Below, piece by piece: positions 5,179 to 18,070 of a stretch of DNA of 64,000 nt. The notes beneath the pieces were generated by a model, which saw only the letters and a program-made list of their open reading frames with translations, ran no database searches and was not told the DNA's origin. How positions within the stretch are numbered: position 1 is the first letter of the stretch; each line of letters opens with the position of its first letter. Made by a program: the position numbers and the translations under genes. The stretch comes from Octopus vulgaris. Lineage: Eukaryota. The stretch spans positions 42,656,001 through 42,720,000 of the forward strand of contig OX597822.1 of the NCBI GenBank assembly GCA_951406725.2. The letters are read 5' to 3'.

Positions 5179-5184
<6 letters not shown>

Positions 5185-5999
5185 GCGATGGGTAAATTGT
5201 TGCCATTTTATATTTCTAATTTCATGCATGTACATTGTTTTTGATTTTGTCGACTACACAGTATAGTAAGGTTAGTTGGGGACCGTTTGTGAGAAAAACA
5301 ACACCATGACCCAATTCTCTCTGCCAGAAATTTGGAAATGATATGCAATACTACTTGCCAGATGCTTCAATATGGACATTTCAGAGTGTTCGGGTGTCAA
5401 TCTGAGGACATGTACTAAGAATAATCAAAATTAAACATCCAAACAACATCATTGTTTGGAGTGACCACTAGTGATGGCGATGTTATGCCTCCATTCATCT
5501 TTCCACGCTACCTCAGACTCAACACAGAGGCCTACATCAAGTGCCTGGAGGAAGCAGTGCTGCTCTTAGTCAAGAGGATGGCTGCTGGAACACCCTATGT
5601 CAAGCAACAGGACTCTGCACCATGCCACAGAAGCAAAAGAACCCAGCCATAGCTGTCTGACAATTTCTGTGACCACATAATCCTTAACATCAGGTCACCT
5701 AGTAACCCAGACTGCAACCCCCTCGATTATTATGTGCGGCGCACAGTTGAGTAAGAGACCAACAAAACTCCTTGTAACACCAAAAACGAACTGAAAGCAA
5801 GGATTATGGCAGCATTCATCAACTTAAACAAGGAGACTATCTAGAAGAGTTGCAGGAGATTCTGAAGTCATCTGGAGGCCATGGTTGAAGCCATGTAGCA
5901 ATTTTACTTACTTGGCAAATACAATATATCTTAAAATGAGATCCCTGTGTTATTTTCATTTTTGCGCAATTTAGACAACAGTTTATTCACCACACCCTG
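5179..5999 (+). mobile_element. Internally deleted, pseudogenised Tc1/mariner-superfamily transposon, DD37D (maT) type
   Basis: Imperfect TIRs (tagggtgcgatgggtaaattgttg / caacagtttattcaccacaccctg) with TA flanks. 5452-5890 translates ..GDVMPPFIFP..QQDSAPCH..NPDCNPLDYYV.. with 37 residues between the last two catalytic Asp; in-frame stops. Confidence 0.85.
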
Positions 6000-6008
6000 T
6001 ATACAGAC

Positions 6009-6054
<46 letters not shown>

Positions 6055-6424
6055 ATGATAGATAGATGAATATACATAGATATAGACAGAGGCATTTGTT
6101 GTGAGTGTGCACACATTTCATCTTACATATATTTTCCATGCTTGCATGGGTCAGAGGAATGTTATTGAGTCAGGCTTTATAGCTGGATGCTCTGTTGTTA
6201 ACCCCGCTAGTCAAGTAAATAATCTCAAATCCTACATAGATTGGATCTGGCAGCAGAACTGACTAGAACAACAGTGCTCACACATCGTGACTTTTATAAA
6301 AGTGATTGGAAATGTAAACACACATTATGTGTGTGTGTATATATATATATATATAAATCTACGCTTCCAGCTTAGTTTTTCTAATGCTCGTTGCTTGGTT
6401 TTTCTTGGAGGGCTGGCCGTGATC

Positions 6425-6487
6425 TAGTAATCTCAAGATTAATCAGCCGAAATTACTACGATGATCCGGTTCTTGACTGAAGACTGA
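6425..6487 (+). ncRNA. Candidate hammerhead ribozyme, non-circularly permuted (copy 1)
   Basis: Stem III TAGTAAT(6425-31)/ATTACTA(6452-58), with GAAA at 6449-52. C17 at 6432. Stem I TCAAGA(6433-38)/TCTTGA(6471-76), directly followed by CTGAAGA (6477-83). Stem II CTGA(6484-87)/TCAG(6443-46) is offset by 2 nt. Confidence 0.55.
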
Positions 6488-7268
6488 GGGTTTCGAATGT
6501 CCTGTCCGTGTTTATTGTGTCGTCTTCTAAGAGTTATACGTTCTTGTCCATGTTGTATTTTTCTACATACCTTAACATATATTCCAGGCGCCCCGTACCC
6601 CCCTTAACATTTATGTGAGCACATATTCTTAATAATTGGTACGACTCTCTGTTTGTCTCTCTCTCTCTCTCATTTTTACTTGATCTGTCCCCCTCTCTCT
6701 CTTTTCTCTCTACTCATCCTCTTTTTCTCTTCTCTTTCCTCTGATTCTTTGGTCTAGTCTTCCACTACCCTCCTATTTCTTTGTCTCGCTCTGCACTCAC
6801 AGGTCATTCTTCGACACCCATCCCTTCTCCTCTCTGATTCCTTCTTTCTCTCTCTTCTCTCTCTTTGTTGCGTTTGTCCCTCCTCTCTCTCTCTCTTCCT
6901 TTGCTTCTCTTTCTTTTCTTTTCCCTCTTCTCTGTCACGTGACTGTTGGCCGAAATCTGCCTTTCAGCCTCTGACTCTCGTTCTGTTAACATCGCTGTTT
7001 TCGTCCGCCACTATAAAGGCTTTTCCCATTGCGCCAGAGAAAAAATTTGTTTGCTTGTTATCAGTCGTAAGACACTGTTGTTTTCACCGTTAATGCTTCT
7101 GTATTTCATGTTTCTGTATTCCATTATTGTTTTTTGTTTTTTTATATCTGTCCCTTTTGCTGTCCTGGTGTTCGTATGCATTCGATCCTTCTTCCAGGAA
7201 ATCTACGCTTCCAGCTTAGTTTTTCTAATGCTCGTTGCTTGGTTTTTCTTGGAGGGCTGGCCGTGATC

Positions 7269-7331
7269 TAGTAATCTCAAGATTAATCAGCCGAAATTAC
7301 TACGATGATCCGGTTCTTGACTGAAGACTGA
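7269..7331 (+). ncRNA. Candidate hammerhead ribozyme, non-circularly permuted (copy 2)
   Basis: Identical to 6425-6487; predicted cleavage 3' of C7276. Confidence 0.55.
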
Positions 7332-7410
7332 GGGTTTCGAATGTCCTGTCCGTGTTTATTGTGTCGTCTTCTAAGAGTTATACGTTCTTGTCCATGTTGT
7401 ATTTTTCTAC

Positions 7411-7443
<33 letters not shown>

Positions 7444-11910: not shown

Positions 11911-12135
11911 GCAAATGCGTGGATGTGTGTGTGTGTAAGCAATAATCTGTACTGTAAAGTTTAAGTTGAAAATAAATTTAAAAAAAAGAAACCCAAAACA
12001 TCAGCAATAGCAATAAATAAAAGAAAAAAGAATTAAAGTTTAGAGTTTGAACTAGATATTCTGAAGATGCCAGAACAGGAGAAAGAGGAATAGTAGTAGG
12101 AGGAGATAGCGGTGGAGGTTTTGACCAGTACTCAC

Positions 12136-12339
12136 CATGCCTCTGTGGTTCACAGAATTGATGTTTGCATTGTAGAGAATCAACTCTCGTACCGCCAGAT
12201 CCTTGCCATTGAGAGAGGCGACATGAAGCGGAGTATTGCCATAGACATTCACAGCATCAACCTCTACACCCAATTCCAAGAGCAACTTGACGACATTTTC
12301 CTGCCCATTTGCACAGCTCGTGTGGAGTGGAGTGTACAT
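12136..12339 (-). CDS. ANKRD28: ANKRD28/44/52-family coding exon
   Basis: gtttcag|ATG...ATG|gtgagt; 204 nt, phase 0/0; MYTPLHTSCANGQENVVKLLLELGVEVDAVNVYGNTPLHVASLNGKDLAVRELILYNANINSVNHRGM. Confidence 0.95.
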
Positions 12340-12470
12340 CTGAAACACCAAGTTAGAGAGAGAGAGAGAGACAGCATAAATTATAAAAAAGACACTTTTG
12401 ATGGCAGAACATTTACGGTGAAGGTAGAAATCTTTATTACATACCTTATAATATTCATTATCACTTAAAG

Positions 12471-13311
12471 CAGTGGTTCCCAAACTTTTTCAGAATCCTA
12501 ATGTTTCTTGTTATACATACCAATACATACATCTAAGAGCCTCTTAAATTCTATTGTGGACCCTCAATTTACTATTATGCTATGTGCCGTGCTAGCGGGT
12601 CGCAAAGAGCACCATACGAGTGTGATTGTTGATAGAGCAGCAAACCAGCTTCTGTGCCAGTGGCACATAAAAGGCACCATTTGAGTGTGATCGTTACCAG
12701 CGTCGCCTTACTGGCACTTATGCCCTGTGCTAATAGGGTGCTAAGAGCACCATCCAAGCGTGATTGTTGACAGAGCAGCTAACTGGCTCCCGTGCCGGTG
12801 GCACTTAAAAGGTACCATTCGAGTGTGATCGTTACCAGCGTCGCCTTACTGGCACTTGTGCCCCGTGCTAACAGGGTGCTAAGAGCACCATCCAAGCGTG
12901 ATTGTTGCCAGAGCAGCTAACTGGCTCCCGTGCCGGTGGCACTTAAAAGGCACCATTCGAGTGTGATTATCACCAGCGTCGCCTTACTGGCACCTGTGCC
13001 AGTGGCATGTGTAAAAAGATTCGAGCGAGGTCGTTGCCAGTACTGCCTGACTGGCCCCCGTGCCGGTGGCACATAAAAGCACCCACTACACTTTCAGAGT
13101 GGTTGACGTTAGGAAGGGCATCCAGCTGTAGAAACTCTGCCAGATCAAGATTGGAGCCTGGTGCAGCCATCTGGTTCGCCAGCCCTCAGTCAAATCGTCC
13201 AACCCATGCTAGCATGGAAAGCGGACGTTAAACGATGATGATGATGATGAACCCCTCCAAAATCTTATATGGACCCTCAGGAGCCATATGGATCCCGGTT
13301 GAGAACCACTG
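12471..13311. mobile_element. hAT MITE interrupted by a family-C retroposon
   Basis: Termini cagtggttcccaaac / ggttgagaaccactg; both flanks are nnnTAnnn; nested insertion at 12575-13250. Confidence 0.7.
12575..13250 (+). mobile_element. Family C non-autonomous retroposon (RTE-type tail, (GAT)n 3' end), representative copy
   Basis: Internal tandem modules gtgccggtggcacgtaaaagcacc; ggttggcgttaggaagggcatccagctgtagaaac block; 3' end catggaaagcggacgttaaac(gat)n. Other copies: 16531-17141(-), 26765-27240(-), 28258-28650(+), 33952-34190(-), 37130-37767(+), 42250-42515(-), 43846-44165(+), 46372-46959(+), 48972-49340(-), 53130-53330(+), 61594-61880(-), 63335-63570(-). Confidence 0.8.
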
Positions 13312-17416: not shown

Positions 17417-17611
17417 CTATAGTAGATGACACATATGCAAGGTCTCATGCAGTGGGGTTGAACTCAAAACCACAGGCTTGGGAAGCAAGATGAAAAATAT
17501 ACTATGAAAAATAAAAGAGGTGAGGGTGGGACAAACTGAAACATTTTGATGGTCATAAAAAAGAAAAGGGTTGGTGGAGCATAGTGATAATTGTGAAAAA
17601 GTAATCCTCAC

Positions 17612-17764
17612 CAGTTTGTCGCGACAGTTGATCTCAGCATTGTGTTCTACTAACATCTGCACCATGTCCACATGTCCCATGAACGCTGCCCAGTGGATGG
17701 CTCTCCGGTCCTTCTTGTCGAAAGCATTTATTGTTGCACCTTTCTCAAGCAGTAGCTGCATCAT
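17612..17764 (-). CDS. ANKRD28: ANKRD28/44/52-family coding exon
   Basis: tcatcccag|ATG...CTG|gtgagg; 153 nt, phase 0/0; MMQLLLEKGATINAFDKKDRRAIHWAAFMGHVDMVQMLVEHNAEINCRDKL, with the diagnostic INAFDKKDRRAIHWAA motif. Confidence 0.97.
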
Positions 17765-18070
17765 CTGGGATGAAGAAAAGGAGAAACAGAAGAGAGAAAA
17801 TGTGGTCAAAGGAACATTAGATATACATATATATACATCCATATACATACATACATACATCCACATACATTGGCACAAATACATATGCACACACAAATAC
17901 ATGCATGTATATATGTTGACACAGATATACTCATGCATAGACACATACATTGACACAAATACACATACATATGCATGCACACACAAATACACACATATGT
18001 ATACATTGACTCAGAATTACATAAGCATAGACACACATACATAGACACTGACACAAATACACATATACAT

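Follow-up and report, generated by a model that had tools for sequence, protein, structure and literature searches.

A predicted split-core, non-circular hammerhead ribozyme in a tandem non-coding Penelope-like element of Octopus vulgaris

A young repeated element of the Octopus vulgaris genome carries a hammerhead-like motif whose three core blocks follow one another in the non-circular order S-G-C. The RNA of this element is predicted to fold as a knotted type SGC hammerhead opened between A9 and G10.1, and there is a good probability that it cuts itself after C7276. The structural part of this proposal is well supported; catalysis is what we infer. The core is conserved, stem II (GGCTGG/CAGCC) receives one strand from upstream, and two further helices, P0 and P1, lie 0–2 nt from the break in the core. 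The window, that is the whole stretch of DNA analyzed, comprises 64,000 nt (contig OX597822.1), and all positions given here refer to it. Published work is cited from the available parts of each source.

The blocks are located on the + strand at 6425–6438 (A), 6443–6458 (C) and 6471–6487 (B), where an earlier note had placed them, and an identical set lies 844 nt downstream (copy 2, 7269–7331). The note's view that the order is non-circular stands: it is S-G-C, the order of type SGC of Eckert et al. 2023 (PMC10085705, available part), with a short linker between stems I and II, and not one of the circular orders CGS, GSC or SCG of hammerhead types I–III. A strict S-G-C pairing scan of both strands, requiring a perfect 7-bp stem III and a perfect 6-bp stem I, recovers C6432 and C7276 as the sole matches in the window and nothing in 150 dinucleotide shuffles of it. 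Both stems are in register as previously described, and the motif is beyond chance. A relaxed scan (4 + 4 bp, wobble allowed) returns the same two matches versus 11 in the 150 shuffles. The expectation that standard type I–III searches would miss the motif is borne out by Rfam, which gives no hammerhead match at E ≤ 10. Folding of the minus strand revealed nothing of note.

The motif belongs to an insertion at 6355–7418 (+ strand), made of 1.26 head-to-tail units of a 5′-truncated, non-coding, Penelope-like or retrozyme-like element and flanked by (TA)n tracts (about 6338–6355 and 7418–7443). One full unit of 844 nt occupies 6575–7418. Its 3′ end, equivalent to 7418 and followed by an AT repeat, is common to 16/16 arrays examined, and the 5′ ends of these arrays fall at 16 different unit positions. 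The shared 3′ end and the scattered 5′ ends indicate that the two 220-nt repeats (6355–6574 and 7199–7418), which had been taken for terminal repeats, are the overlap of a tandem and not LTRs; no fixed-length terminal repeats bound an internal part. Arrays of the young family are head-to-tail with a period of 844–861 nt and reach at least five units, older subfamilies have periods of 754–825 nt, and the longest homology between separate copies is about one unit. A (TA)n target, a fixed 3′ end, variable 5′ truncation and partial tandems, the hallmarks of Naiad insertions, were observed in all 16 arrays. The non-coding head-to-tail units with one ribozyme each correspond to non-LTR retrozymes, although the hammerhead is not of type I. 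The attribution of the motif to a young Penelope-like element is judged right. In the genome (2.8 Gb), the 220-nt repeat has 1,257 candidates, and 40 of 40 scored are 100% identical. The older subfamilies have 4,101 and 1,277 pattern matches, which partly overlap, with 0 and 1 in reversed controls.

With Neptune-type protein queries, no Naiad-type ORF (N-terminal GIY-YIG, C-terminal RT) joined to the unit was found in 213 family loci. Penelope-like protein matches occur at nine of these loci, and the three inspected are separate insertions. A coding partner with the sequence of the window's family was not found among the loci searched; the candidates considered for an autonomous role, 30 GIY-YIG loci and 30 from a second Neptune-like family, agree with that family in layout and not in sequence. 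Within the unit, the palindrome GTCACGTGAC (6934–6943) and TATAAA (7012–7017) may form an internal promoter (6934–7017, + strand), and the word CACGTGAC is also present in older subfamilies. An intron at about 7068–7197 was considered and rejected: its donor word is lost in older subfamilies, and a spliced joint was looked for in four runs and not seen. A hairpin with a GNRA tetraloop, about 110 nt before P0, seems to be kept (GTC-GTAA-GAC at 7064–7073, GTC-GAAA-GAC in older subfamilies). The insertion lies between ankyrin-repeat exons of a minus-strand gene (1156–1569, 12052–12489 and 17417–18010; Pfam Ank matches for two of the three), so that the ribozyme is antisense to the host pre-mRNA. 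At 5180–6000 the window also holds a decayed DNA-transposon-like remnant, with a PDxNPLD word near 5700–5750 which may be of Tc1/mariner type.

The complete domain, as delimited by predicted folding and subfamily comparison, spans 7179–7343 on the + strand and exists only in copy 2. It begins with the predicted 5′ strand of P0 (7179–7191), in which CATTCGA (7179–7185) pairs with 7337–7343 and CCTTC (7187–7191) with 7330–7334. The predicted P1 hairpin follows (7192–7254; outer 10 bp 7192–7201 with 7245–7254); it contains a 22-nt duplication (7202–7223) which marks the youngest subfamily and leaves the outer pairing intact. The 5′ strand of stem II, GGCTGG (7255–7260), supplies G10.1 and pairs with TCAGCC (7287–7292), and the 5′ strand of an additional ‘I’ helix, CCG(T)GATC (7261–7268), pairs with GATCCGG (7307–7313), as indicated by covariation. 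Block S (7269–7282) comprises the stem III strand TAGTAAT (7269–7275), C17 (7276) and the stem I strand TCAAGA (7277–7282); the cut is predicted 3′ of C7276 from covariation, the pairing scan and a pile-up of insertion 5′ ends. The next segment (7283–7302) consists of a 4-nt linker, TTAA, and block G, that is TCAGCC, GAAA (7293–7296) and the stem III 3′ strand up to 7302. It is followed (7303–7327) by the linker CGAT, the 3′ strand of the ‘I’ helix, a T, the stem I strand TCTTGA (7315–7320) and CUGAAGA (7321–7327). After A9, a 2-nt linker, CT, leads into the 3′ strand of P0 and not into stem II (7328–7343). Copy 1 (6355–6499, + strand) has the same core, with C17 at 6432, GAAA at 6449 and CUGAAGA at 6477. 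Its 5′ truncation has removed the 5′ strand of P0 together with 7 nt of the 5′ strand of P1, so the roughly 90 nt by which the motif extends 5′ of the segments first noticed are incomplete there. The P0 3′ strand (7328–7345) resembles the remains of a minimal hammerhead of the canonical kind, with C-GAA-T-GTC following CUGANGA, and is possibly a trace of an ancestral order.

Stems I and III and the ‘I’ helix are maintained by compensatory changes. Of 93 distinct copies, 67 whose 5′ side is intact entered the alignment; the other 26, truncated or rearranged, did not. In the 66 distinct rows, 93.3% of cells pair, versus 12–42% in slid registers, and 10 of the 24 pairs show changes on both sides. 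To reduce the effect of kinship, 91 of the 111 full-length copies were sorted into 11 subfamilies; the remaining 20 were not used. At this level, with the register fixed by the core, stems I and III have two Watson–Crick types at 5/10 pairs, versus 0.67 in a neutral tree simulation (as many or more in 0 of 20,000 runs), and 3/110 broken cells versus 14.8 simulated (as few or fewer with P = 0.0002). The 7-bp ‘I’ helix, which joins the other sides of stems I and II as in type SGC, covaries at 2/7 pairs between subfamilies and 3/7 among copies. Its broken cells (6/77) are fewer than the 21.0 simulated (P = 0.0015); its double changes alone are not significant (P = 0.11). A structure-blind shuffle of columns is weakly exceeded (18 versus a mean of 7.0 and a maximum of 18; 8 versus 2.5 and 10). 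Broken pairs are found in distal stem I (A-G in S9/S9b, A-C in S4, a deletion in S7), and mismatches of the ‘I’ helix in four subfamilies.

The motif contains the full hammerhead core (C3 U4 G5 A6 N7 G8 A9, G12 A13 A14, A15.1-U16.1 and H17). None of 11 core columns varies between the 11 subfamily consensuses, versus 8 of 16 unpaired columns, while N7 can be any of A, G, C or T and H17 either C or A. The majority of loci were retrieved by patterns which demanded GAAA and/or CTGANGA, and core conservation is therefore inflated; block S was part of no pattern. Two sets retrieved without CTGANGA as a requirement retain each core position in 25–26/26 and 25–29/29 copies. The covariation check proposed in the earlier note is thus passed by stems I and III, the AUC site and the core, whereas the stem II pairing drawn there remains at shuffle level.

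This offset stem II, CUGA with UCAG, can be drawn in the window copy and is not conserved: 55.9% of cells pair, and 495 of 500 shuffles score as high. Four of the 11 subfamily consensuses carry two or three mismatches and three more carry one. In the canonical 10.1–11.1 register, 0/44 cells pair. Since stem II pairing after CUGANGA fails, the canonical reassembly across the two repeats (A1-B1-C2), also envisaged in the note, fails too. The true partner of TCAGCC is GGCTGG, upstream of the segments first described. It pairs in 94.4% of cells and forms a stem II which is closed by G10.1-C11.1 and adjoins GAAA, by means of a separate strand; no stem II begins 0–2 nt after A9 on the same strand. 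Within the window's family, none of the six stem II pairs shows a double-sided change. A presumed subfamily with an altered stem II (546 matches) turned out, in 30 loci inspected, to consist of sporadic mutants or truncations. A pairing of the post-core strand with the segment directly 5′ of GGCTGG was dropped, as this segment is the 3′ strand of P1. The canonical stem II variant CTGANGAGGC has 16 matches, of which two are window-family copies with deletions and eight belong to a different, type III-like repeat family (L031, L032, L034, L036, L038, L039, L041 and L045, at about 1500–1570). The latter shows, in type III order, CTGATGA, a 6-bp stem II and GAAA, with GTC upstream; its stem I is nearly absent.

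The strand which leaves the core after A9 finds its partner some 90 nt upstream of the cut, which gives P0, and the P1 hairpin fills the gap. In the window copy, P1 adjoins both P0 and stem II with 0 nt. A helix is present at the place of P0 in 11/11 subfamily consensuses, and with stem II forced, the linkers between P0, P1 and stem II are 0/0/0 in three subfamilies and exceed 2 nt in none of the 11. Left to fold freely, the window copy forms P0, P1 and stem II; free energy minimization never yields the complete knot, and the cut site is covered by alternative hairpins. Given the upstream GGCTGG partner and the position of P0 and P1 beside the break, the motif is best modeled as an SGC hammerhead with the extra ‘I’ helix, opened between A9 and G10.1, with a predicted four-way junction at the opening. 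Its block C is interrupted, so that it behaves like type SGC and yet falls outside the type as defined.

This relation is apparent in SGC-3, whose oligonucleotides (PMC10085705) give the order: stem III strand, C, stem I strand, 2 nt, stem II strand, GAAA, stem III strand, 1 nt, ‘I’ strand, stem I strand, CUGAUGA, bulged U, stem II strand and ‘I’ strand. With its ends joined and the molecule opened at the bulge after A9, the exact order of the window motif results. The S-G-C order, the ‘I’ helix which connects stems I and II at their far ends and the full core are shared with HRIMA-1 and its variants, and the four helices which Eckert et al. 2023 found necessary all have counterparts in the window. 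The linker between stems I and II measures 4 nt instead of the typical 3. The interruption after A9 is a bulged U in the validated SGC-3 and an opened backbone here, and the window motif places the stem II 5′ strand first and adds P0 and P1. As far as the available part of PMC10085705 goes, block C was assumed not to be interruptible, and type SGC was known from metatranscriptomes only, with nothing in known organisms' genomes except one weak GCS case.

The window motif likewise resembles the minimal type I hammerheads of Penelope-like elements (Cervera and de la Pena 2014, PMC4209133) in its position near the 3′ end and in G10.1-C11.1, and an additional nucleotide at the step from position 9 to 10.1 is tolerated and common in that group. 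Those hammerheads differ by their canonical order, the lack of stem III and action as dimers; the window's family is non-circular with a stem III of 5–7 bp. Animal non-LTR retrozymes (PMC7229834; 10.64898/2026.07.22.740005, available parts) are also non-coding head-to-tail units with one hammerhead each, for which a circular RNA intermediate and a derivation from Penelope-like pLTRs have been proposed. They are defined and found by type I hammerheads and descriptors, unlike the present motif. The unit of 844 nt exceeds their typical 300 nt but is within the reported range of 51–972.

A second family in the same genome shows the layout too. The Naiad_Ovul-type motif has 432 matches, with the same helices and other letters; no sequence similarity to the window motif was found. 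In 24 of 30 fetched copies which are in register, stem II pairs in 118/120 cells, the ‘I’ helix in 105/120, stem III in 112/120 and stem I in 131/144. In the 18 of 30 copies reaching further, P1 pairs in 135/144 cells and P0, which is short, in 80/108. The canonical stem II register pairs in 46/96 cells, with 10.1–11.1 never paired. Alike in layout and unrelated in sequence, this family supplies the missing covariation of stem II. None of its 30 loci reaches a Naiad ORF, and the link to an ORF comes from the published consensus. The stem II letters of this motif (GACAC/GTGTC; L319–L348) are those of SGC-3, as are the stem III letters AGCAATC/GAAATTGC of older subfamilies of the window's family (L048, L086); convergence is probable in both cases.

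According to the available part of Craig et al. 2021 (PMC8557442), (TA)n is the target of Naiads, which are described as having no canonical hammerheads, but only flags such as ‘HHR_core’ and ‘HHR_half_core’. Fourteen published Naiad 3′ ends from its supplement were read by eye, and about 40 others left out. Seven of the 14 have the split layout with unrelated letters: Naiad-2_Movir, Naiad_Plae, Naiad_Obim, Naiad_Ovul, Naiad_Esco and two read from snippets. The layout is perfect in Naiad_Plae (all helices, 0/0/0 junction), stem II is degenerate in Naiad_Esco, and one snippet has a very short stem I while P0 and P1 of the other lie beyond its end. One Naiad (Naiad_Hpol by row order) carries type CSG in intact form, with a U bulging out at the same step; this is the same knot circularly permuted. 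In Naiad_Ptep, stems I and III follow the S-G-C order and stem II is ambiguous, and by eye the layout is absent from the other five 3′ ends (Dcar, Omin, Adux, Skow-1 and Lpol). Several Naiads therefore carry, in their 3′ UTR, the ribozyme layout of the window's family, which also shares with them the (TA)n target, 5′ truncation, partial tandems and, in some copies, inverted 5′ pieces; it differs by having no ORF and no similarity to the Naiad_Ovul-type motif.

Other Penelope elements of this genome carry different hammerhead-like sequences. Young elements which we presumably assign correctly to the Neptune clade, from their Zn-linker motif (L143, L148 and many more), have many intact 781-aa frames, are inserted at (TA)n and contain a degenerate hammerhead-like TTGATAA...GAAAC close to the 3′ end. 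Another Neptune-like family (L257–L286, at about 2300–2500; 1,873 candidates) has a minimal type I hammerhead with U at position 3, about 135 nt from the 3′ end. A metagenome scan for the window motif gave two matches, both without the stems.

The 5′ ends of insertions hint indirectly at cutting. Exact patterns, of somewhat different length and subfamily coverage, were used to count across the genome the copies that run straight into (AT)5. Junctions number 21 at −13, 8 at −3 and 89 at the predicted cut, followed by 289 at +9, 43 at +19, 9 at +33 and 3 at +39; the biggest peak is at +9, not at 0. The sites −3 and +9 share the context AAT|C, and the cut and +39 share T|C. As the same contexts give unequal counts, microhomology alone does not explain the step. 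Among 114 copies collected without requiring block S, 18 end in 0 to +12, and the next three upstream bins hold 6, 4 and 3. Repeating the junction count in subfamily S5 was uninformative (3 versus 1). None of 16 long arrays starts at the cut, and we infer that these were copied from circular templates. One run, which we guess to be RNA, contains a cyclic contig of 874 nt (depth 198), and two further runs contain the back-joint; tandem DNA would look alike in each case.

The life cycle which we propose is modeled on the one published for Penelope-like elements and retrozymes. Transcription would run through a tandem array, and successive ribozymes would release 844-nt monomers, some of which may circularize. 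In the folded RNA, stem II would stack on the G12-A9 and A13-G8 pairs as in any hammerhead and P0 on P1, which would leave the active site ordinary. A Penelope-like RT/GIY-YIG endonuclease, probably of Naiad type, would act in trans and prime at a (TA)n target, with a constant start inside the unit, 142 nt downstream of the cut. From linear templates, short copies that end at the cut would result, and from circles, arrays of several units whose 5′ ends are random. The fold would have been maintained by selection acting on the non-coding element.

The main competitor of this scheme, which we regard as unlikely, is a fold that is real and selected but no longer catalytic, serving as a site of RT binding, stalling or host nuclease action; the pile-up of 5′ ends would then reflect stalling and microhomology of the A/T-rich GATTAAT with (AT)n. 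The excess of ends at +9 over those at the cut fits this reading, as do the discontinuous core and the poor in vitro cleavage of minimal Penelope-like hammerheads (PMC4209133, available part). It does not account for a fixed core in which N7 is free and H17 is never G, which is a catalytic signature, nor for the few ends at −3 and +39, which share their contexts with +9 and the cut. Somewhat less probable still is that the same split-core fold acts mainly between two units, as a domain-swapped tandem or dimer in which S is cut by the G and C of the other unit. Every strand is indeed repeated in arrays, animal Penelope-like hammerheads are reported as dimers (PMC4209133), and the monomer knot is crowded, with 0 nt between the ‘I’ helix and stem III in the window's subfamily. 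As a monomer, however, SGC-3 does cleave, and its corresponding link has 1 nt (PMC10085705); autonomous Naiads have one copy per unit of about 3.5–4 kb.

The original proposal of an ordinary type SGC monomer with the offset stem II, or of canonical assembly across two repeats, now appears very improbable. The 4-bp pairing is free of mismatches in 4/11 subfamily consensuses, the window's included; the pairing counts and shuffles of both families speak against it, and both strands have better partners. A chance arrangement passively copied by a repeat family has a negligible probability. Kin share changes, so that copies are not independent, and pairs which tolerate G-U arise easily; this is answered by the empty shuffles, by the tree-aware simulation and above all by the same layout in sequence-unrelated families, because of which chance is largely refuted. 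The self-cutting, split-core type SGC fold remains the preferred reading.

We know of no precedent for a core broken at A9/G10.1. Lunse et al. 2017 reportedly described dimeric Penelope hammerhead variants, which could bear on novelty. The literature searched, which comprised papers available without subscription, yielded no report of non-circular hammerheads in animal genomes.

Taken further, the comparison of sequences makes it rather likely, if less so than the fold and cutting proposed for the window's element, that Naiads of cnidarians, acanthocephalans, nematodes and cephalopods, together with non-coding derivatives, carry an active non-circular hammerhead, mostly split at A9/G10.1 and rebuilt as a four-way junction. 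Such a permutation class would lie beyond the six considered possible, and a single animal genome would hold thousands of copies of it, cleaving in vivo. If this is true, non-circular hammerheads would move from unassigned metatranscriptome RNAs into animal genomes, and a permutation would be added which breaks a block thought indivisible. Surveys of retrozymes by type I descriptors would then undercount them. The pile-up of insertion 5′ ends would represent a genome-scale, indirect sign of Penelope-type cutting in vivo, which was lacking according to the available part of PMC4209133. Finally, the scrambled, split-core layout would explain why Naiads were thought to have no hammerhead, and would answer the puzzle raised in Craig et al. 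2021 (PMC8557442, available part) of elements seemingly without hammerheads and yet with ‘half cores’.
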